From Escherichia coli (GTDB lineage: Bacteria > Pseudomonadota > Gammaproteobacteria > Enterobacterales > Enterobacteriaceae), in NCBI GenBank assembly GCA_032372955.1, contig GCA_032372955.1_4725.1: a stretch of 64,000 nucleotides of DNA; one strand, written 5' to 3'. Position numbers and translations under genes: made by a program. Below, piece by piece: positions 8,313-55,258 of the stretch. The first letter of the stretch is position 1. Each line of letters opens with the position of its first letter. The notes under the pieces were generated by a model, which ran no database searches, was not told the DNA's origin, and saw only the letters and a list, made by a program, of their open reading frames with translations.

Positions 8313-8774
8313 ATGACGACATGGGATTCTTACGGTGAGCAGCTGGTAGAATCGATAATTAAAAGCTTTGAAATACTCGAAGTAAGATTGCAGGAGGACG
8401 GGTGCTGGGAATTATTTAACGAGCCCGATTCCGACTCCGAACCTTACTTCTACAACCTATCCGTTCCAACAACACAACACGGCAATGCTACGATTGTAGA
8501 TATCACCGATATCAGAGTTTACAATAATCGTATCGCTGTAATAGCACGACTGCCTTTTAGCGTAAACGGGCTTGCCGCAAAGCAACTTCTAATGTATACA
8601 GCCAACGAGACATTTGGTAAATGCATAAAGTCGCACGGTATCTCGTTCCCCCTAGCGATCGATTATGAATTATCGGATGGCTGCAATCTCGTTACATTGG
8701 AGTATGAACCGGATAATGGAACAGAGATAACAGCACTCTCTGTTCCGATGAAGATGAAGAAAGAGGTAGAATAA
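8313..8774 (+). CDS. Small protein, paralog family A (member 2)
   Basis: Shares RLPFSVNGL / LEYEPDNG blocks with 8774..9232; stop overlaps the next start (TAATGG). Confidence 0.55.
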   Translation: MTTWDSYGEQLVESIIKSFEILEVRLQEDGCWELFNEPDSDSEPYFYNLSVPTTQHGNATIVDITDIRVYNNRIAVIARLPFSVNGLAAKQLLMYTANETFGKCIKSHGISFPLAIDYELSDGCNLVTLEYEPDNGTEITALSVPMKMKKEVE

Positions 8775-9232
8775 TGGCAACAATGTATTCATTCGAATCT
8801 AACGTCAACGAACTTTTCGACTCGCATAGAGACACTTACGTCACGCCTGTTGCTGAGACCGTCACTCGAAGTATCGAATCCCTCAAACAAAATCTACGTA
8901 AATCCGATATTTGGTCGATGGGACATAGCGATAATGACGGGACGTATTTTACCATCGTGGAACGTATCCCAACAATACCGTTTCATAGCGTTTATCTTGA
9001 CAGTACCGTTGTTTTCTATGTTTACAAGCATCGTATCCTTATCAACATACAACTACCATTCAGCGTCAGCGGGGTTGATGCTATACGTCGGTTGGCTGAT
9101 GTTGCTAATAACGCATTTACGAAATCAGCTATGCCGTGCGATTTCCCTATTACATTAACACTCAAGTTTTCCGATGGTTATGAATTCTACACGATGGAAT
9201 ACTCTCCAGACGAAGAAGGAGCTAAGGGATAA
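8774..9232 (+). CDS. Small protein, paralog family A (member 3)
   Basis: QLPFSVSGVDA and MEYSPDEEG blocks collinear with member 2; same length class (152 vs 153 aa). Confidence 0.55.
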   Translation: MATMYSFESNVNELFDSHRDTYVTPVAETVTRSIESLKQNLRKSDIWSMGHSDNDGTYFTIVERIPTIPFHSVYLDSTVVFYVYKHRILINIQLPFSVSGVDAIRRLADVANNAFTKSAMPCDFPITLTLKFSDGYEFYTMEYSPDEEGAKG

Positions 9233-9234
9233 TC

Positions 9235-9999
9235 ATGTCTATCAAAGATAAAGTTCAGCGATTAATCGAATTCAACCAACAGTGCCGTATTGATGAACTC
9301 GTCAATCTCGTAAACCATATATTCGATAAGTTTGAAGAATCGTTAAACGACGATATGTGGGATACCGATATCGTAAACGGTAAAGCGTATCTTCGGAAAA
9401 CCGTAGCGGATACTGATAGGGTACAATTTCTGGAATTCGGTTTAACTGACGATGGTGCCGTTATTCATGCGTTATTACCCCCATGTTTAAATAACGTTGA
9501 TGTATTAACATACAAACAACATCTATCCGAAATTTTCCAAACAAGAACCTCAAAGTACGAATGTCATATTCGTTTAATGATGTGTTTCCCCATGGAATCT
9601 AACGATAGCAAAACAATAACATTCGATACAAAAGAAATCGCAGATGAAATCTACGTCGATAGCGCAAGGGCTCGTGTCGATCGTATCGTCGATATGTTAG
9701 TTGATGTTGCACGTTCATTCAGTTCAACATCAGACTCTAAGAATGGTTACGTATGTGATTACGTGCATGAACCGTTACGGCGCATCGTTGCAACTCAGAC
9801 AGACAAAGGCATCAATGTTATTGGGGTAGTAAGTGATTTGTCTATGACCGACAACGACAATCTTGAGTTGAGAAGGATCTTCGAAACACGATTGCGAAAC
9901 TGCGCATCGAGATACAAAACATCTGTCACCTTCACCCTCTGTTTTCATCCCGCCATCATGTCGTGGGTAACAACTGTTGATAAAGAAAACAGTAAATAA
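9235..9999 (+). CDS. Hypothetical protein (254 aa)
   Basis: ORF tightly packed after 8774..9232, with AGGAGCTAAGGGATAATC before the ATG. Confidence 0.5.
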   Translation: MSIKDKVQRLIEFNQQCRIDELVNLVNHIFDKFEESLNDDMWDTDIVNGKAYLRKTVADTDRVQFLEFGLTDDGAVIHALLPPCLNNVDVLTYKQHLSEIFQTRTSKYECHIRLMMCFPMESNDSKTITFDTKEIADEIYVDSARARVDRIVDMLVDVARSFSSTSDSKNGYVCDYVHEPLRRIVATQTDKGINVIGVVSDLSMTDNDNLELRRIFETRLRNCASRYKTSVTFTLCFHPAIMSWVTTVDKENSK

Positions 10000-10035
10000 G
10001 TAATATTTCCAAATCGATAACATTAAGGATAAAAA

Positions 10036-10431
10036 ATGAGCATTGTAGAATCCATCGTTAAAGCTGTTAACGACAACATCGATCATCCGCGCATTTCTAC
10101 CATGATCGATATTATTAAACAAGAAAAAACACCTGGTTCATACATTCGTTTTACCCGTTTTGATAGCAGCGATTTACTTTTCACTGTGAAAACCGAGGTT
10201 CACGAGCAACGTATCATCGTAGAGGTCCTGGTAAAGGAGAACAAAGAACTAGACTGGCACTCTGTTCGTGGTGACAGAGACGCGAGAAATTTACTTAAAG
10301 AACATCTCTGTAAAGTGGAAGAGAAATACAATATCCCATTTAGCTTAGAGGTCAATCTTTTCCCAGCGTACCTGCTCTGGTACGTCAGTAGTGAGAAGCA
10401 TGTCGAAACGACAACTGACGTCAAAGAGTAA
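10036..10431 (+). CDS. Small protein, paralog family B (member 1)
   Basis: MSIVESIVKAVNDNIDH and EEKYNIPFSLEVN blocks shared with 10468..10866. Confidence 0.55.
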   Translation: MSIVESIVKAVNDNIDHPRISTMIDIIKQEKTPGSYIRFTRFDSSDLLFTVKTEVHEQRIIVEVLVKENKELDWHSVRGDRDARNLLKEHLCKVEEKYNIPFSLEVNLFPAYLLWYVSSEKHVETTTDVKE

Positions 10432-10467
10432 ATATACGTGATCAATAACAAACTAGGGATTAAAAAG

Positions 10468-10866
10468 ATGAACGTTGCTGATTCCGTCGCTAAAGCGGTC
10501 ATCGATAACATCGACCATTCGTATATTCCCGCCATGATCGATCTGGTTAAGCGAGAAAACGTATCTGACTCGTTGATGTGCTTTAGTCGTATGCTCGACC
10601 AAGCTATACTCGAGGCTGTAAACGTCAGCGTACATCGCCAACATGTTCTCTTCGAGGCGTATATAAAGAACGACCAACATCGATTAGGCCACCACGCGTT
10701 ACGACACGACGAGAACGCGCTGGAGCAGCTAACGAAATGTCTTTATGCGCTGGAAGAGAAATATAACATTCCTTGCTCTCTAGAGGTTAACCATTACCCA
10801 GCGTGTCGGATTTGGCGTATCGCTGGTAAGAAAGGCGCGACGCCTTCAGCTGATTGCGAAGCATAA
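10468..10866 (+). CDS. Small protein, paralog family B (member 2)
   Basis: MNVADSVAKAVIDNIDH and EEKYNIPCSLEVN blocks; ATG at 10468 aligns with the paralog N-terminus (track start 10438 is GTG). Confidence 0.55.
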   Translation: MNVADSVAKAVIDNIDHSYIPAMIDLVKRENVSDSLMCFSRMLDQAILEAVNVSVHRQHVLFEAYIKNDQHRLGHHALRHDENALEQLTKCLYALEEKYNIPCSLEVNHYPACRIWRIAGKKGATPSADCEA

Positions 10867-10877
10867 CAACGTAGCAT

Positions 10878-10921
10878 AGCCCCTTCCCTAGCCATCAAGG
10901 CCGGGGAAGGGCTGTATACCG
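10878..10921 (+). terminator. GC-rich hairpin (CCCTTCCC/GGGAAGGG) followed by CTGTATACCG
   Basis: Immediately after the stop at 10866; same architecture as the other hairpin-TATGC elements. Confidence 0.45.
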
Positions 10922-10941
10922 ACTACACAGGAAAAGAAACA

Positions 10942-11394
10942 ATGAACATGAAAACCGACAAATCTATGAAAAAGCGCTTAGATCGTCTATTCAATGGTCC
11001 CACGGCAGCCTCCGTCGTTGAGGATGTTATTACTCAAGCATTCGAATGCATGGACAGAGGTCTTAACAGCATCCTTGGATGGCATCAGAAAGAACGTGAA
11101 GGTAAGCTCGTCCAGTGTTACAACGAACGTCACTTCGATGATAGTGGTATCAGTGGCGATTACTTTATCTATTTATTTCCCGATAAAATCACGATCAACA
11201 TTGAATTCGATAATGCGATGAACGATCAGGAAATAACATCGATGCGTCAAGCCGCGAAACAAGCCTTCGGACGTTGCGTGGAGCAATACGATCCCGATGT
11301 GTTTATCACATGCCGCATTTTCATCGAGCCGCGAAAATTAATTCAGCATATGTCCTACGGCACCACGTACACTGACGAATCCAACAAGGAATAA
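10942..11394 (+). CDS. Hypothetical protein (150 aa)
   Basis: ORF with AGGAAAAGAAACA before the ATG. Confidence 0.5.
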   Translation: MNMKTDKSMKKRLDRLFNGPTAASVVEDVITQAFECMDRGLNSILGWHQKEREGKLVQCYNERHFDDSGISGDYFIYLFPDKITINIEFDNAMNDQEITSMRQAAKQAFGRCVEQYDPDVFITCRIFIEPRKLIQHMSYGTTYTDESNKE

Positions 11395-11504
11395 AGAACT
11401 GAACCATAACAGCAACGCCAAGAGCCTTATTTGTAGTTTCAAGTATACCTCATCAAACATGAATTAACACGTCAATCAATCGACATAACCACTAGGAGCA
11501 TTCA

Positions 11505-11990
11505 ATGAACATCAACTTTACTATCGAATCCGGCGATTACATGAACGATCGTGATATCATCACATTCTACCGCGAGGATTTTCGCAACGCTATTCTTAAA
11601 ACGATTGAGGATGTCTTGGATCTCGCTGAAGATCAACTTAGCAGCATCACCCCTGAAACACACATAAAAGCACGCGACGAAGCTCTGGGTGATTTGTATA
11701 TACCTAAAGCCTGTGATCGCTGCTGCTTCACTGATTTCTTCGTGTCTACGCAAGCGGTCGTTACCGACGATGGGAAGCATCACGTGATCCTTATCTTGGC
11801 TTCTCATGAGCCTATGATCAATCACGCACTTTCTTTTACACCCGGGTACATCTATGCCCTTGCAAACAAACCGATGATCAACGAAATCATTGCTGACATC
11901 CTTAGTCAGATTTGCAAAGAACATGGATTCCTGTCTATTTTCTTAACCGACGCTGACTACAAAGTAACGGCTGGCAACGAACGCGCATAA
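11505..11990 (+). CDS. Hypothetical protein (161 aa)
   Basis: AGGAGCATTCA before the ATG and a hairpin terminator right after the stop; the overlapping minus ORF 11502..11924 lacks these signals. Confidence 0.5.
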   Translation: MNINFTIESGDYMNDRDIITFYREDFRNAILKTIEDVLDLAEDQLSSITPETHIKARDEALGDLYIPKACDRCCFTDFFVSTQAVVTDDGKHHVILILASHEPMINHALSFTPGYIYALANKPMINEIIADILSQICKEHGFLSIFLTDADYKVTAGNERA

Positions 11991-11991
11991 A

Positions 11992-12052
11992 CCCCACCCC
12001 TCCCTCCGGCTTCCGCCAGGGGGAGGGGCTTCGCATGCGTTTTCTTTTTTGT
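11992..12052 (+). terminator. GC-rich hairpin followed by a T-rich tract
   Basis: CCCCTCCCTCC..GGGGGAGGGG stem, then GCATGCGTTTTCTTTTTTG. Confidence 0.55.
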
Positions 12053-12690
12053 TAAACGAGGATCAACATACTTGATTCATTCGATGGTCCGCGCTTCCTC
12101 TTTTGGACGTGTTGCATCGAAATGCTCTAAGAGTTCAAACATCGATGGTGCTTTATAAACGATTCTACAGAAGTCTACAGCGTTCGTTTTACCTCCGGTA
12201 ATAAAGTTGATACCTAACTTCCTGAATTGATAGTCAGAGACGCCCTCAATGCGCGAGAGCTCACGAAAAACACACGCTCTGGATAGATTCAGCAGGATCT
12301 GCCCGTTGGGGTAGGACGAGGAGATGTCAAGCCATTGTCCACATAAGACGCAACTCTTATGCCGGTGTGTGCCACCCGCCTAAGCTTTCACTTAGGAGCA
12401 GACTATATCATGGAATGCTTTCGCACCCCTCCCGTGTTTGAGGACGCTTGTCCCTTACTCCGCGCGACCGGATAGTCGTTGAACGTTCTTCTTAGGTCTT
12501 ATTGCTGATGCATGCCCTTAGAAGCTTCGCTGCTGATTGCCCATTTATCGTTTCCTTACGAACATCCTTTCTGTTTTCTAACCTTGACGTTTTTCTTTTC
12601 AGAATCCGCTGTGGTCGAAAGGCTTTAGGGGGTTCCAGCAATTAACGGGAATCCGGTGGGGGCGTTATCCCCACCGGGACCTAAAATCGG
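12053..12690. other. ~640 bp tract with no ORF of 60 codons or more in any frame (candidate structured RNA, intron remnant or decayed gene)
   Basis: Lies between the terminator at 11992..12052 and the HNH gene stop at 12691; contains a TCTTATGCCGG motif and a hairpin at 12654..12678. Confidence 0.3.
12654..12678 (-). terminator. Hairpin just downstream of the HNH gene stop (no obvious U-tract)
   Basis: CCGGTGGGG-cgttat-CCCCACCGG, 9-bp perfect stem, 13 nt 3' of the minus-strand stop codon. Confidence 0.35.
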
Positions 12691-13797
12691 TTAAGCGTCG
12701 TTAAGACCGACAGGCATCGAACTGACATCTTCAAAATAGCGGAAGATGAATGGAGAACGACCTTCTGTGATCCTATTACGACAGTACTTCGTGATAGTCA
12801 CGTTAGAAACACCCGTCTCTCGTTGTGCGTGAGCAATTGATGCAAACACATAACGTTTACCGGTTTGTTTATCGATAGCCGCGATAGGGTGACCCATATC
12901 GTATTCCTGAAGACGACGATGTTGTCCGATCTGCCAATCTGGCCACGGAGTATCATCGTCAACTTCTTTGAAATACAGATTACAGGCTGGCATGAATTTC
13001 GTTTTACGCGTCATCCAATACCAAACACGTTTACGTTCCAAGCATGGATAAGCAGCACAACACGCGGCAATAGTCGGGAACACCCTAATCTCACCGGTAT
13101 TGTAATCCTTAACCTTAACAGGATGTAAGCCTTCCGTACGAAGACCATTATCAACTGCATGCTTATTGTTCTCAGAATAGGTTGTCCATTCAATGTTGCC
13201 AGGACGGTTATCCCATTTGATGCCGTTCTTGTGATTGATGATCTTTGTCATCACATCGGCACCGTATTCCAGGAACACGTAACCCATCGCTCGATGCTGG
13301 AACATTTGAGCTGTGAAACCGTTGTCATTAACAACTCGTTGAAAGAGATAACCAGCACGTTTATTTCGCGCCGGATCCCCTTTCGACCGTGTCCATGATT
13401 TCTTCTGCCCGGTTAAAAGACTAATAACTTCACCCTGTTCATTCATCACGTAATGCGTGAAGAACGGGACATAGTAATAGCCGGGATAACCTTTATGTTC
13501 CAACTTACCGTTCTTGAAACGATAAAGCAAATTCTCACGTTTGATGTTTTCTGGGTTCCCATCGATATACAACGAATGTGCTTCGTCTAAGAGATCTTCG
13601 TATATGTTAATAGCGTGCAGTTTACGCATTACCACAAGACCTGCGTCATACAGACCAGGACCACGGTACCAGTCAAGTTTGACGTACGATATTCCGTCTT
13701 CCACGATAAGCGGTAACGGCTTCATATCGAGGTCGAAGATACCTTCTTCGGAAACAACACATTCAGTAATCTTTGGATACTCATAACTACTTGACAT
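12691..13797 (-). CDS. HNH homing endonuclease
   Basis: HKNGIKWDNRPGNIEWTTYSENNKH is a canonical HNH block; the likely start is the second ATG at 13797 (MSSSYEYPK), 7 bp after AAGGAG; the track start is at 13824. Confidence 0.8.
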   Translation of the reverse strand: MSSSYEYPKITECVVSEEGIFDLDMKPLPLIVEDGISYVKLDWYRGPGLYDAGLVVMRKLHAINIYEDLLDEAHSLYIDGNPENIKRENLLYRFKNGKLEHKGYPGYYYVPFFTHYVMNEQGEVISLLTGQKKSWTRSKGDPARNKRAGYLFQRVVNDNGFTAQMFQHRAMGYVFLEYGADVMTKIINHKNGIKWDNRPGNIEWTTYSENNKHAVDNGLRTEGLHPVKVKDYNTGEIRVFPTIAACCAAYPCLERKRVWYWMTRKTKFMPACNLYFKEVDDDTPWPDWQIGQHRRLQEYDMGHPIAAIDKQTGKRYVFASIAHAQRETGVSNVTITKYCRNRITEGRSPFIFRYFEDVSSMPVGLNDA

Positions 13798-13864
13798 ATC
13801 AACTCCTTGCTCGCTTAGTATCATACTTATCGAGAAAGGAGGTAAAACTTAACCGATTTATTTC

Positions 13865-15364
13865 TTAATCCGCAACAAATAATCTAATATAACTTCTCAG
13901 GTTCGGCATATCCCAGAAGAGATGGATGCCGTTGTCCGCCATGAGATCGCATGGCAATGTGACGATATGTCCGGTTCGTGAGATAACCCACTTATCTTCT
14001 TCCTGGGTCATGTCGTCGGCGGTGCATCCCATGACTTCCCCACGGTTAAGATACACGAAGAAAAGTTTATCGCAGATACGTTTAGGGTTAGAACTGAAAT
14101 CTTTCAAATCCGACGCCGCCAAACGAATAGGGATGGTCATCGAATAGTCTTTTGTTTTCTGGTCCAACGCCTCGATGCCTTGGTTATCCCAAAGGTTATA
14201 TACACCGTAGTCGATTTGATGGTTCGTTTGCATCTCTTCGTGCCATGCAAGCTCCGTGAACCCTTCTGTACCAGGAATCGCTTTTAATTTCGTATGGCAT
14301 TTATTTCGCTCTAACACCGCATCGAGTGAATAACGTCCTTCATCCGGTCTTCCTAAACGAACGAACTTATAACCACACATCGCATCCATAACCTGATACG
14401 TGGCCATCGTATAAAACATCGGCCATGTTTGCTCAAGGGTAAGGTTGGTTTTACGACCTGAAGCAGATACCTTGTCGGTCTTCGGTGGTACCCAGCGAGC
14501 AATACGATACTTAGGTGGTACACGAGGATCGGAGAAAACATCCTCGGGACGATACCCTTCCTCGTTCAGTGCCTGGAGCATGCGCGGAATATCGAACGCA
14601 ATATTCCAGCCAAGGAGATAATCCGGCTGCCATTCGTGAACCTTCTGCATGCATTGGATGACCGCTTGCGCCGGGCTTTCTACGATTCGCACATCGTACT
14701 GATATTTTTCAAATGCGTGAGGATCTTCTTTGGTGTTCAGACGTTCGGCCAGGTAATATCGAATCTTCTCATGGGTTTTCTCAATCGCATTCGGAATATG
14801 ACCAACGAAGTCCTTGGTATAGCAAAGGATCGCATTGTATCCCATTGTAATAGACATACAGACGATCTTACCGTGTCCATGGACAACGTCGGTTTCGATA
14901 TCGAAACAGGCAATGGAAGCGGGTAATTTATCGACGTATTCCGGCCATTTTGTATTGTATTGGGTTTTTAAATAACAGCTGGCGCTAACGTCCGTGCCGT
15001 AGAGGTAGGGACTCCGTGCAAGTTGTTGTAAACGGGTGTTATCGTCAGCACGTCTTTTATAAAGCACCGAACTGATCTTTTCAACCAGTTCACTTTGACG
15101 GACATCGTAGCGTCGCACATGCGAGAGCTTCTCGCTTTCCTTTTTATATTTGTTCTTGCGTTTACTCTCTACCGTCACCCAAAACGGACGTTTGTAATTC
15201 TCGAAGAAGCGAAGGTTCGTCGCTTGCGTATTATCATCAAAGAACATGATCTCTTTTGCGATCATGAGGTCGTTCTTACTGCCATCGTTCGCTTCGTTAT
15301 AGCTGATGTGTCGACATTGAATACCGAGCAGTTTCTTCTTAGGTTTTCGTTCTTGTTCGCTCAT
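13865..15364 (-). CDS. DEDDy 3'-5' exonuclease domain protein (family-B DNA polymerase proofreading-like); no polymerase motifs in this ORF
   Basis: Exo I FDIET, Exo II WNIAFD, Exo III YNLWD (YxxxD) in canonical order and spacing; the ORF ends about 100 aa after Exo III with no DxxSLYPS or YGDTDS blocks. Confidence 0.65.
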   Translation of the reverse strand: MSEQERKPKKKLLGIQCRHISYNEANDGSKNDLMIAKEIMFFDDNTQATNLRFFENYKRPFWVTVESKRKNKYKKESEKLSHVRRYDVRQSELVEKISSVLYKRRADDNTRLQQLARSPYLYGTDVSASCYLKTQYNTKWPEYVDKLPASIACFDIETDVVHGHGKIVCMSITMGYNAILCYTKDFVGHIPNAIEKTHEKIRYYLAERLNTKEDPHAFEKYQYDVRIVESPAQAVIQCMQKVHEWQPDYLLGWNIAFDIPRMLQALNEEGYRPEDVFSDPRVPPKYRIARWVPPKTDKVSASGRKTNLTLEQTWPMFYTMATYQVMDAMCGYKFVRLGRPDEGRYSLDAVLERNKCHTKLKAIPGTEGFTELAWHEEMQTNHQIDYGVYNLWDNQGIEALDQKTKDYSMTIPIRLAASDLKDFSSNPKRICDKLFFVYLNRGEVMGCTADDMTQEEDKWVISRTGHIVTLPCDLMADNGIHLFWDMPNLRSYIRLFVAD

Positions 15365-53422: not shown

Positions 53423-53461
53423 CTTTAATCTGCTTAAGCAACTTTCTGAAAGGAGTGTGTG

Positions 53462-55258
53462 ATGGATCCTAGATTCTGCAAAGCTGTCGCTGAGCTTGCA
53501 CCGAAGATGAACGAGAAGATAGCACGCAACATCGTCGTCGATAAGATGCAAGATGTTGAGTCCTATGTTGATCGTCTTTGGCGGAACAGCAAAGATAGTT
53601 TACCTAAGGATCTGGTGTATCATGGCCTGCGTCGCTGCATGGCCCGCGAACAGTTCCACTACTTAAGCGGAGGAAAGAAAACCAAAGGGAAGGATAGCGG
53701 TAAGCTGACCTTCGACCTTGCGCCTTCCGATGTGTTTATGGTGATGCTGGAATTCCGCTGGTACGGCGCAATGGAATCAGGTGACCGTCGTGAACCAGGA
53801 AAGGACTACTGCATTATCCGACACCCTCTCCTATTGCCCGCGGTAGGTCAGGGTGGTAAAATGCGTCTACGTGGTGCGAACTTCATTCTCAGTGCGGTGC
53901 TCGCTGACCCTGTAATCAGTTACACGAAAGACATGGCGTTCATCATGCTTCCGCGTGACAAAATCACGGTTAAACGTACACCGTATCAGTTCCTGAGCAA
54001 TGATACACCGACCGGTATCGATTATCGTCATTACCTATCATTACCCTGGTCGCAAATCTATCATCTTACCAAACAAAGTAAAGTGAACGGTGACAACATC
54101 AACCACACCAGCGTAACCACACTGGGTCACTATCTCTTTGCGAAGTATGGGGTGGGTGAGTGTTTCCGACGTTTTGCAGGCGTCGAAGCCGTAACCGGAC
54201 GGAACCTTGCTGAACGTGATTTTCCGCGCGACCAATGGGTAATCTATCGCACCATGGGGGTTATTCCTAAAGGCTTTAGTATCAGCAAAAGCGGTAAAAG
54301 CCGTAGCGCTAGCGCTGTACGTTACAAGCATCCTGATATTCAAATTGCCGTAAGACGTGGAGGCACGGAACGTATTGTTCTTGGCCTTGTCGGCGCATTC
54401 TTGTATCTCATCGACCGTTATTACGATCGTTTTCCGGAAGACTATCCGGTTGAAGAGTTCGCGAATGCGCCAGACCATTGGCGTACATTACTCGGTTTGA
54501 TTATCTTTAATAACAACAATGCAGATGCGCGTTTGTTGCGTGATGTAAACCACCACATCGACAGTCTCGATCTTTACGTTGACGAGATTCAGCAGAAGAA
54601 GTTCAAACAGGAAAATATTCCTTGCGATGACTTCTACGAATTTATGGCGTATCTGATTGACAATGTTACTATCGAAATGAGTCGTGTTGATACCACGACG
54701 ATGTTCGGTAAGGAATTGATGGTGTTGGAATATGTCATGGAGGATGTGCGTAAGAGCATCTTTAAACTGGGGTTCCATCTTAAAACCACAGAACGTGGTA
54801 AACGACAGAACAACCGTAAAGAGATGACCAATCGCGATGTACAGAAGGCGTTGCGAAATCAAGTTGCGACGGAAGCGATTCTCAATATCCAGAGCAATCG
54901 TGATAAGCGTGAGAAAGTGGCAACATCGATTCAGTCACCTGGTGATTGCATGCTGTTCAAAGTGAGCACGCATGTTGTTCTCCAGAGCCAAAATGCAGGC
55001 GGTGCTGCATTGGCTGACGAGAGTCGTTTGGTTAGTGGTTCCATCCCGTTCTGTGCAAGCTATCTGAATCTTCCACACTCCGAACCAACCGGACGTCAGA
55101 AGTTCAGTATGTACGCACCTATCGACGAACGTGGTCGGTTAATCATTACCCCACAAATTGCAAATGACGTTGCAGCAACCAATGCAGGCTTGAAGAAAGA
55201 CGTCGGTCGATTCGATGAAGAAATTGTAGAAATTAACGATCACGACATAATCGATTGA
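53462..55258 (+). CDS. Hypothetical protein (~598 aa)
   Basis: ORF with AAAGGAGTGTGTG before the ATG. Confidence 0.55.
   Translation: MDPRFCKAVAELAPKMNEKIARNIVVDKMQDVESYVDRLWRNSKDSLPKDLVYHGLRRCMAREQFHYLSGGKKTKGKDSGKLTFDLAPSDVFMVMLEFRWYGAMESGDRREPGKDYCIIRHPLLLPAVGQGGKMRLRGANFILSAVLADPVISYTKDMAFIMLPRDKITVKRTPYQFLSNDTPTGIDYRHYLSLPWSQIYHLTKQSKVNGDNINHTSVTTLGHYLFAKYGVGECFRRFAGVEAVTGRNLAERDFPRDQWVIYRTMGVIPKGFSISKSGKSRSASAVRYKHPDIQIAVRRGGTERIVLGLVGAFLYLIDRYYDRFPEDYPVEEFANAPDHWRTLLGLIIFNNNNADARLLRDVNHHIDSLDLYVDEIQQKKFKQENIPCDDFYEFMAYLIDNVTIEMSRVDTTTMFGKELMVLEYVMEDVRKSIFKLGFHLKTTERGKRQNNRKEMTNRDVQKALRNQVATEAILNIQSNRDKREKVATSIQSPGDCMLFKVSTHVVLQSQNAGGAALADESRLVSGSIPFCASYLNLPHSEPTGRQKFSMYAPIDERGRLIITPQIANDVAATNAGLKKDVGRFDEEIVEINDHDIID

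Follow-up and report, generated by a model that had tools for sequence, protein, structure and literature searches.

Introduction

Reportedly, Goodrich-Blair and Shub (1994, 1996) and Landthaler et al. (2004) described the I-HmuI and I-HmuII introns in the DNA polymerase genes of the Bacillus phages SPO1, SP82 and phi-e. HNH-bearing group I introns in SPO1/SP82-type phage DNA polymerase genes are cited in PMC11620839 and PMC12908238, and other phage DNA polymerase introns are known from LUZ24 (PMC10914365), Bastille (I-BasI) and Pf-WMP3 (I-PfoP3I; both PMC12908238). In the chimallivirus PhiPA3, an intron of an RNA polymerase gene encodes the HNH endonuclease gp210, which cuts co-infecting phiKZ, and experiments have demonstrated its role in competition (Birkholz et al. 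2024, PMC11620839). Another chimallivirus RNA polymerase gene intron was described at PhiPA3 gp65-66 (PMC11077065). In this study, a related locus was analysed in a stretch of 64,000 nucleotides (nt) from an Escherichia coli assembly (GCA_032372955.1, contig GCA_032372955.1_4725.1), which is called the window below. The region shared about 96% identity with Escherichia phage vB_EcoM_Goslar, which belongs to the nucleus-forming jumbo phages (Chimalliviridae), and was distinct from Goslar. With a probability of about 0.9, we read positions 11,991 to 15,364 as one gene. It would encode the N-terminal subunit of a split family B DNA polymerase (PolB) of a Goslar-like jumbo phage, and a mobile group I intron would interrupt it two codons before the motif A aspartate. 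All gene and intron coordinates are those of the minus strand of the window unless marked (+).

The locus resembled the introns of SPO1, SP82 and phi-e in that a group I intron with an encoded HNH endonuclease lies in a conserved coding segment of a replicative polymerase gene, although splicing is predicted here. In both cases, related phages carry similar introns with highly divergent endonuclease open reading frames (ORFs) at one site, and the flanking exon is co-inherited. In contrast, the host gene here is predicted to encode the N-terminal subunit of a split family B polymerase in a Gram-negative nucleus-forming jumbo phage. The endonuclease gene is placed in an extended P1 loop, and its product of 368 amino acids (aa) has an extra N-terminal region and no significant sequence similarity to I-HmuI. 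With PhiPA3 gp210, the locus shares the phage family, a group I intron with an HNH gene in an essential information-processing gene, and relatives that differ in intron content. However, the interrupted gene here is that of a DNA polymerase subunit, the competitive role is a proposal, and at least three intron types occur at one site in one species-level cluster.

Two introns are annotated in Goslar itself (NC_048170.1; Intron_gpI, HOV27_gs001 and gs002, at 169269..169645 and 211817..212245), in RNA polymerase subunit genes beside the HNH genes gp186 and gp206. They belong to the same lineage and the same Rfam family and also have an adjacent HNH gene, but they lie in other genes, outside the window. 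The Goslar polymerase intron (81190..82951) is unannotated, and gp068 is listed as a shortened 499-aa protein. The introns of LUZ24, Bastille and Pf-WMP3 are also group I introns in phage DNA polymerase genes whose removal restores the frame, and several of them encode nicking HNH enzymes. However, they belong to unrelated lineages and polymerase types, and we found no split polymerase or multi-allelic site described for them. In the literature, within incomplete coverage that makes this absence of evidence only, no description of a DNA polymerase intron in Goslar or other chimalliviruses was found. The polymerase intron is a previously unannotated example of a well-known class, the HNH-bearing group I introns of phage polymerase genes.

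Results

Intron identity and boundaries

An earlier note on this DNA had suggested that a group I intron with an HNH endonuclease interrupts a phage polymerase gene, and it had proposed a covariance-model scan. This suggestion was supported by a covariance match, by a product restored from end to end and by an identical natural intron-less allele. The match to Rfam family RF00028 spanned 12704..12379 and scored 70.1 bits, above the gathering score of 50 (E=7e-17 in the 5-kb region and 9e-16 in the whole window). RF00028 was the sole Rfam family above threshold across the whole window. Homology to Goslar ended at the predicted 5' splice site, extending only over the shared intron opening TAA (to 13865), and resumed exactly at 12332. 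The sequences between these homology breaks, 1536 nt in the window and 1762 nt in Goslar, were unalignable except for 32 nt of the ribozyme core.

The first three intron bases, UAA (13867..13865), form a stop codon in frame with exon 1 in unspliced mRNA, and the last base is G12332, the terminal omega-G. Because the intron starts with UAA, ribosomes on unspliced RNA would halt at the exon-intron border. The exon end GGAU paired with the internal guide sequence GUCC (12680..12677), and the last exon base, U13868, forms a predicted U.G wobble with G12680. GGAU at the end of exon 1 and the guide GUCC were present in all intron-bearing alleles and in the distant introns L039, L066, L067 and L070 (L numbers denote database loci). 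U before the 5' splice site and G at the intron end were seen in 10 of the 10 introns examined. The intron-less allele has AGAC where the intron-bearing alleles have GGAU.

Joining GAT (13870..13868) to CTT (12331..12329) gave GCG GAT / CTT GAC, where the slash marks the junction, and a 583-aa protein. The predicted spliced junction of the window allele was GTTGCGGAT / CTTGACATC, with FVADLDISSSYPNGQ as the protein segment across it, and the predicted junction of the Goslar type was GCGGAT / CTCGATATA. A protein identical over 583/583 residues (P0001) was encoded uninterrupted on a 237-kb contig of the European Nucleotide Archive (L217). The features of the locus are given in Table 1.

Table 1. 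Coordinates of the interrupted polymerase gene, its intron and nearby elements in the window
Feature	Positions	Strand	Basis or remark
Exon 1, 499 codons, N-terminal and 3'-5' exonuclease domains	13868..15364	-	ORF; Exo residues; AlphaFold; Goslar homology of 96.6% (nt) that stops exactly at the exon end
5' splice site and P1 exon strand GGAU	13868..13871	-	Direct reading; pairing check
Group I intron, 1536 nt	12332..13867	-	Rfam RF00028; boundaries from the intron-less allele L217 and uninterrupted homologues
P1a 5' strand AAAUCGG	13853..13859	-	Pairs with CCGAUUU at 12690..12684; 7 Watson-Crick pairs, each strand unique in the intron
HNH homing endonuclease gene (predicted), 368 aa and stop	12691..13797	-	Pfam, PHROG, related gene calls
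P1a 3' strand (12690..12684) and internal guide sequence GUCC (12680..12677)	12677..12690	-	Reading and pairing check
Ribozyme core	12332..12676	-	Rfam alignment, explicit pairing check, minimum free energy fold
P2	12676-12669/12661-12654	-	Pairing check
P3	12651-12645/12435-12429	-	Pairing check
P4	12640-12635/12536-12531	-	Pairing check
P6a	12524-12520/12492-12488	-	Pairing check
P7	12477-12472/12406-12401	-	Guanosine-binding helix; GACUAU/AUAGUC
P8	12428-12423/12418-12413	-	GAAA loop
P9	12396-12390/12385-12379	-	GAAA loop; P9.1 and P9.2 follow
Exon 2, 84 codons and TGA (12079..12077)	12077..12331	-	Translation; conserved residues; hhalign to T4 gp43
Synonymous hypervariable patch, codons 500-509	12302..12331	-	17-allele comparison; putative endonuclease recognition region and co-conversion tract
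GC-rich terminator-like hairpin	11996..12029	-	Separates the polymerase gene from the convergent ORF 11505..11990(+); RNA fold energy -38 kcal/mol, z=-3.95

The 499-aa ORF with Exo I/II/III motifs that the earlier note reported was present at 15364..13865. Its proposal that this ORF is exon 1 of an interrupted polymerase held, since excision adds 84 codons in frame and the product aligns with uninterrupted homologues. The tract of about 700 bp that it described as having no ORF of 60 codons or more contained only ORFs of 47-49 aa (12690..11991). This tract consisted of the ribozyme core (12690..12332), exon 2 (12331..12077) and an 86-nt spacer with a hairpin. Intron core RNA and a short 3' exon, which had been offered as alternatives for the tract, both agree with this composition, and the third, a decayed gene, was rejected. 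The statement that palm motifs were missing was right for exon 1 only; in the tract, motif A sits in frame without a start codon.

The predicted spliced product

Exon 1 carries the motifs CFDIETD (Exo I), WNIAFD (Exo II) and YGVYNLWD (Exo III) and ends with TTT GTT GCG GAT (F V A D499). The residues D155, E157, N254, D258, Y389 and D393 were invariant in 59 homologues. Exon 2 begins with CTT GAC ATC TCC TCG TCC TAC CCC AAC (L D501 I S S S Y P N), which corresponds to PolB motif A, and its first in-frame ATG, GTG or TTG is codon 562. Pfam gave a weak match to DNA_pol_B_exo1 on the 499-aa ORF alone (E=0.006, below cutoff), and the identity of the product was taken from PHROGs on the spliced protein, structure prediction and hhalign. 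Residues 8-576 of the spliced 583-aa product matched positions 5-570 of the 576 in PHROG 3011, 'DNA polymerase' (E=4e-178). The product aligned end to end with the uninterrupted proteins of phiKZ (gp82, 638 aa), Ralstonia RP12 (627 aa), Xanthomonas RTH11 (583 aa) and Erwinia pEa54 (565 aa). In this alignment D499, L500 and D501 were invariant across the junction, and D499, D501, Y506 and P507 were invariant in the 59 homologues.

The 59-homologue profile was compared with T4 gp43 using hhalign (95.7%, E=9e-9), and hVaDLDVssYPN was aligned to FDLTSLYPS of motif A. The alignment with RB69 was collinear but weaker for this segment. D501 was the counterpart of the catalytic aspartate in the T4 alignment, and the intron is therefore placed two codons upstream of that residue (FVAD / LDISSSYPN). 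The AlphaFold model of the spliced product had a predicted local distance difference test score (pLDDT) of 85 and a predicted template modelling score of 0.80, and was confident for residues 7-460. Foldseek matched it to the family B polymerases of RB69, T4 and Pol epsilon over about 455 columns with E values of about 1e-12 (RB69 gp43, E=8e-13), covering the N-terminal and exonuclease domains.

The remaining polymerase motifs were placed on another protein. Motifs B (KxxxNSxYG) and C (DTDS) were not found in the spliced protein or in the 64-kb window by six-frame regular expressions and by tblastn with phiKZ gp50. Both motifs are on phiKZ gp50 (KINNNSYSG, SDTDS) and on its Goslar homologue gp244. 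These proteins matched Pfam PF20286, 'divergent family B DNA polymerase' (phiKZ gp50, E=0; Goslar gp244, E=2e-204), and gp244 lies 93 kb from gp068 in Goslar. The gp82-type and PF20286 halves co-occurred over the same phage set, in 299 and 306 records. The PF20286 polymerase lacks a fused exonuclease, and one is encoded elsewhere (Iyer et al. 2021, PMC7824862). These sequence comparisons indicated that the spliced protein is one subunit of a split PolB and incomplete alone, and that the motif A aspartate would travel with the exonuclease subunit.

The earlier note had left three options for the 499-aa ORF, namely exon 1 of an interrupted polymerase, a proofreading subunit of a split polymerase and a stand-alone nuclease. 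Two of them hold together, because the gene is interrupted and the polymerase is split at the protein level. The spliced product would be the N-terminal, exonuclease-bearing subunit, and the PF20286 protein, which is encoded separately, has motifs B and C. The stand-alone nuclease was rejected. A complete polymerase elsewhere with its own Exo motifs, which the note had named as counter-evidence, was not what Goslar contained; gp244, the other polymerase gene there, was matched to the divDNApol family, which lacks the exonuclease. A 599-aa ORF at 53459..55258(+) in the window is, by position, probably the counterpart of Goslar gp039 (599 aa, 'polymerase', weak similarity to a metagenomic protein). 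This ORF is not the PF20286 partner.

Ribozyme structure and endonuclease

The helices P2, P3, P4, P5, P6/6a/6b, P7, P7.1, P7.2, P8, P9, P9.1 and P9.2 were all located and paired base by base. An unconstrained minimum free energy fold of 12692..12332 (-116.5 kcal/mol, z=-3.0) recovered P2-P9.2 except the pseudoknotted P7. The two hairpins P7.1 and P7.2 are inserted between P7 and P3', as in subgroup IA. Phage group I introns usually belong to subgroup IA2.

Compensatory changes relative to the Goslar and L172 intron types were found in P1a, P2, P3, P5, P6a, P7 and P7.2. In P1a, AAAUCGG/CCGAUUU of the window is replaced at the same place by CGUUCU/AGAACG in the Goslar type, and P2 is also altered on both strands. 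G-C and U-A alternate in P3, C-G and U-A in P5, and U-A and C-G in P7, where the window has GACUAU/AUAGUC and the Goslar type GACCAU/AUGGUC. Among the intron types, P6a appears as CUUCU/AGAAG, ACCC/GGGU or CCUC/GAGG, and P7.2 as GGAC/GUCC, GAGAA/UUCUC or GGGGA/UCCCC.

The endonuclease gene lies inside the loop of an extended P1, since the two P1a strands flank it. As the earlier note had described, an HNH ORF with its own ribosome-binding site starts 40 nt past the stop of the 499-aa ORF. This longer ORF (13824..12691) uses an upstream ATG at 13824. The better start is ATG 13797, with the Shine-Dalgarno sequence AAGGAG 5 nt upstream at 13808..13803, and independent gene calls on related contigs also gave 368 aa. 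Both HNH_3 (35.1 bits against a cutoff of 24.8, residues 194-220) and NUMOD1 (27 bits against 22.8, residues 321-347, C-terminal to the nuclease) were above the Pfam cutoffs. The I-HmuI NUMOD-like model gave a weak match below its cutoff (14.5 bits), and PHROG 59, 'HNH endonuclease', was matched with E=4e-21. The protein was 41% identical to Goslar gp069 in a local BLASTP alignment of 335 residues and 37% identical over the full length. It was related to phiKZ gp179, with detectable homologues in PhiPA3 and phiKZ. The endonuclease ORF was intact in every allele examined, at 368, 378 or 396 aa.

From these features, we infer that the intron splices and that its endonuclease is active on a target near the insertion site. 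The minus-strand transcript would span exon 1, the intron and exon 2. The ribozyme would fold through P1-P9.2, with the exon GGAU paired to the guide GUCC. Guanosine would attack after U13868, exon 1 would then attack after G12332, and the GCG GAT / CTT GAC join would yield the 583-aa protein. Unspliced RNA would give just the 499-aa protein without motif A, because the intron begins with UAA. The HNH/NUMOD1 protein would act on intron-less or heterologous alleles, nicking or cutting them close to the site of insertion. During recombinational repair, the intron would then be copied along with about 30 nt of exon on either flank.

Alleles at the insertion site

The site was compared in 17 alleles from Goslar-like phages, in which exon 1 was 94-97% identical in nt and the proteins were nearly identical. 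Alleles of the window type had introns of 1536/1537 nt and a 368-aa endonuclease (the window, WIN, with L014, L221, L222, L224, L226 and L227). Those of the Goslar type had introns of 1760-1762 nt and a 396-aa endonuclease (Goslar, L015, L219, L220, L223 and L225), and those of the L172 type had introns of 1705/1706 nt and a 378-aa endonuclease (L172, L139 and L218). One allele, L217, had neither intron nor endonuclease. An incomplete eighth window-type locus, L180, stayed outside the 17 scored. The site therefore held one of three intron types with four endonuclease variants (37-97% identical), or was empty, in exons that were about 96% identical. The endonuclease identity was 97% for WIN-L014, 73% for WIN-L222, 37% for WIN-Goslar and 62% for Goslar-L172.

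Metagenome contigs were scanned with a 17-mer for the end of exon 1. The pattern was too short, and 117 of the 120 loci were chance matches; the three real ones were L139, L172 and L180. With three alleles found by the 5'-flank 17-mer, the invariance of the 5' flank is partly ascertainment, and the protein-based finds (WIN, Goslar, L014, L015 and L218-L227) agreed in sequence. One 90% protein cluster contained both intron-less (583 aa) and intron-bearing (499 aa) proteins in large numbers, from assemblies of Salmonella enterica and E. coli and from metagenomes. The exact 499-aa exon-1 protein appeared in 241 index blocks, among them NCBI assemblies that carry the label Salmonella enterica or E. 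coli. Goslar-like contigs of 209-259 kb (L218-L227, L217, L172 and L139) were common in public data. Megablast against complete RefSeq E. coli genomes and PLSDB plasmids gave no match.

A purely synonymous hypervariable patch was observed at codons 500-509. It had 7.8 mean pairwise differences per 30 nt, whereas the background over a 10-codon sliding window across the 583 codons had a median of 0.94, a standard deviation of 0.59 and a maximum of 2.77. This was an 8-fold excess, and a six-allele version was also computed. Codons 465-557 had 0 amino-acid changes across the 17 alleles. The serine codons in the patch alternated between TCN and AGY. The 3' flank read CTTGAC ATC TCC TCR TCY in the window type, CTCGAT ATA TCT TCA AGY in the Goslar type and CTCGAT ATT AGC AGT TCA in the L172 type. 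The haplotype of this flank followed the intron type, with L014 and L222 as mosaics. Guide-sequence (P10) pairing as the cause of the exon-2 variability was ruled out, as about two pairs are possible.

At the end of exon 1, the intron-bearing alleles read TTA TTT GTT GCG GAT. The intron-less L217 read CTA TTC GTT GCA GAC / CTT GAC ATT AGC AGT TCA, and its insertion site was TTCGTTGCAGAC / CTTGACATTAGCAGTTCATAC. L217 differed from every intron-bearing allele at 6-9 positions in the last 30 nt of exon 1, compared with about 3% elsewhere, and these differences included bases required for P1. The divergence was concentrated in the stretches of about 30 nt that flank the insertion site on its two sides, and the rest of the gene had no such concentration. 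This pattern was the footprint that would be expected of break-initiated gene conversion with co-conversion of the flanks.

Introns in distant relatives and the neighbouring region

In distant chimallivirus contigs with 31-39% protein identity, the same gene was interrupted by RF00028 introns of 51-92 bits. Three insertion positions were found, which were the window site (L039, L066), a site 6 nt downstream after the DLD codons (L070, L067), and codon 467/468, near window position 13964 (L074, L079, L082, L067; 51-87 bits). L067 had two introns in one gene, at codon 467/468 and after codon 501. The introns at the window site and at the +6 nt site both paired GGAU with GUCC for P1. The +6 nt site (L070 4949.., L067 5369..) could have arisen if the intron moved to a nearby GGAU, either through reverse splicing or because the endonuclease was retargeted. 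About one fifth of the best 120 database homologues ended near residue 460-500, to which contig truncation may contribute. These endings were consistent with frequent interruption.

The hairpin downstream of exon 2 is probably a bidirectional terminator. A sigma-70 promoter and terminator consensus scan gave nothing informative; promoter-like sites were fewer than in shuffles, and the hairpin was missed because of its short T-run. Jumbo phages of the Goslar type rely on RNA polymerases of their own. Downstream of the polymerase gene, 8774..11990(+) held six small ORFs of 131-254 aa, whose number and sizes varied among Goslar-like contigs. Two of them, 10036..10431(+) and 10438..10866(+), were paralogues with 38% identity (E=2e-31). 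This region is a variable neighbourhood of the intron site.

Discussion

We weighed three other explanations of the locus. If the intron were a dead relic, splicing would be lost, the 499-aa exonuclease would work alone, and the 84 codons would be an unexpressed remnant. Unspliced RNA does stop at the UAA of the exon-intron border, exon 2 has neither a start codon nor a ribosome-binding site, and the Goslar version of the intron is under the Rfam threshold. However, exon 2 differed between the window and Goslar at 22 nt with 0 amino-acid differences, and the amino-acid sequence of codons 465-557 did not change in the 17 alleles. This synonymous-only pattern points to strong purifying selection on the translated sequence. 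The ribozyme helices also keep their pairing through compensatory changes, all the introns examined retain the U at the 5' splice site and the terminal G, and the C-terminal segment with motif A is invariant family-wide. We regard a relic as very improbable. It is scarcely credible that the locus is three independent genes without splicing, namely a stand-alone exonuclease, a free-standing HNH gene and a non-coding or decayed spacer. The Goslar annotation has this form, with gp068 as a 499-aa 'DNA polymerase', gp069 as a NUMOD1 protein and then 820 unannotated bp, and free-standing HNH genes are common in jumbo phages. Such an arrangement is contradicted by the covariance match (E=7e-17), by the exact deletion that restores a full-length family member and by the intron-less allele that is identical to the predicted spliced product. 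It is also contradicted by the Goslar homology, which breaks exactly at the predicted splice sites.

Another explanation accepts the splicing but holds that the endonuclease is no longer homing and that the alleles diversified as phages circulating together recombined in the ordinary way. In its favour, mosaicism is general in phage genomes, the small genes beside the locus vary in number, and the sequence similarity to I-HmuI was insignificant. However, the endonuclease ORFs were intact in all the alleles examined, and HNH and NUMOD1 both exceeded their Pfam cutoffs. The divergence lay within about 30 nt of the site, which is the footprint expected of break-initiated conversion, and presence or absence of the intron was polymorphic at one precise site. 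An endonuclease that has ceased to home is considered unlikely.

Several observations weigh against the reading of an interrupted subunit gene with a mobile intron. Self-splicing and endonuclease activity were both deduced from sequence. P10 was weak, with about two pairs (CU/AG) that could be drawn. The Goslar-type intron reached 44.7 bits with RF00028, below the 50-bit gathering score, which is probably why the polymerase intron escaped the Goslar annotation. In a phmmer search of the PDB, the similarity of the endonuclease to the I-HmuI structure (1U3E) was insignificant (E=0.52). Residues 464-516 (13973..13868 and 12331..12281), including motif A, were modelled at a pLDDT of 30-50, compared with values above 90 for the rest of the protein. 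Because of this low AlphaFold confidence around motif A, the evidence for the palm assignment comes from the profile alignment and the conservation of the motif. The low-confidence segment would fit a palm fragment that needs the separate PF20286 subunit in order to fold. In addition, co-conversion and selection for resistance to cleavage could each, or jointly, account for the flank hypervariability.

We tentatively propose, as a possibility well short of an even chance, that several rival intron-endonuclease lineages contest the site beside the catalytic aspartate in one phage population. The endonucleases would then be weapons that cut co-infecting Goslar-like phages with an empty site or a rival intron, and the synonymous patch would be a record of an arms race between cleavage and escape. 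Every intron type comes with a synonymous recoding of the motif A codons that is particular to it, at a place where the protein product cannot change.

The Goslar reference and hundreds of related contigs list a 499-aa "DNA polymerase", so that the intron and the 84-codon exon with the catalytic motif are missing from them; the predicted product has 583 aa. In the replicative polymerase of chimalliviruses, the exonuclease subunit appears to provide the motif A aspartate, and another protein motifs B and C, which would imply an active site built from two polypeptides. Transcription and translation are separated in these phages, so these introns must splice without help from ribosomes, in contrast to T4. 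The Goslar-like phages offer a natural test system, with an empty site or rival intron-endonuclease variants at one position and a sharp synonymous footprint. The locus would extend to a DNA polymerase gene the idea, drawn from the PhiPA3 RNA polymerase gene, that intron endonucleases mediate competition between co-infecting jumbo phages.

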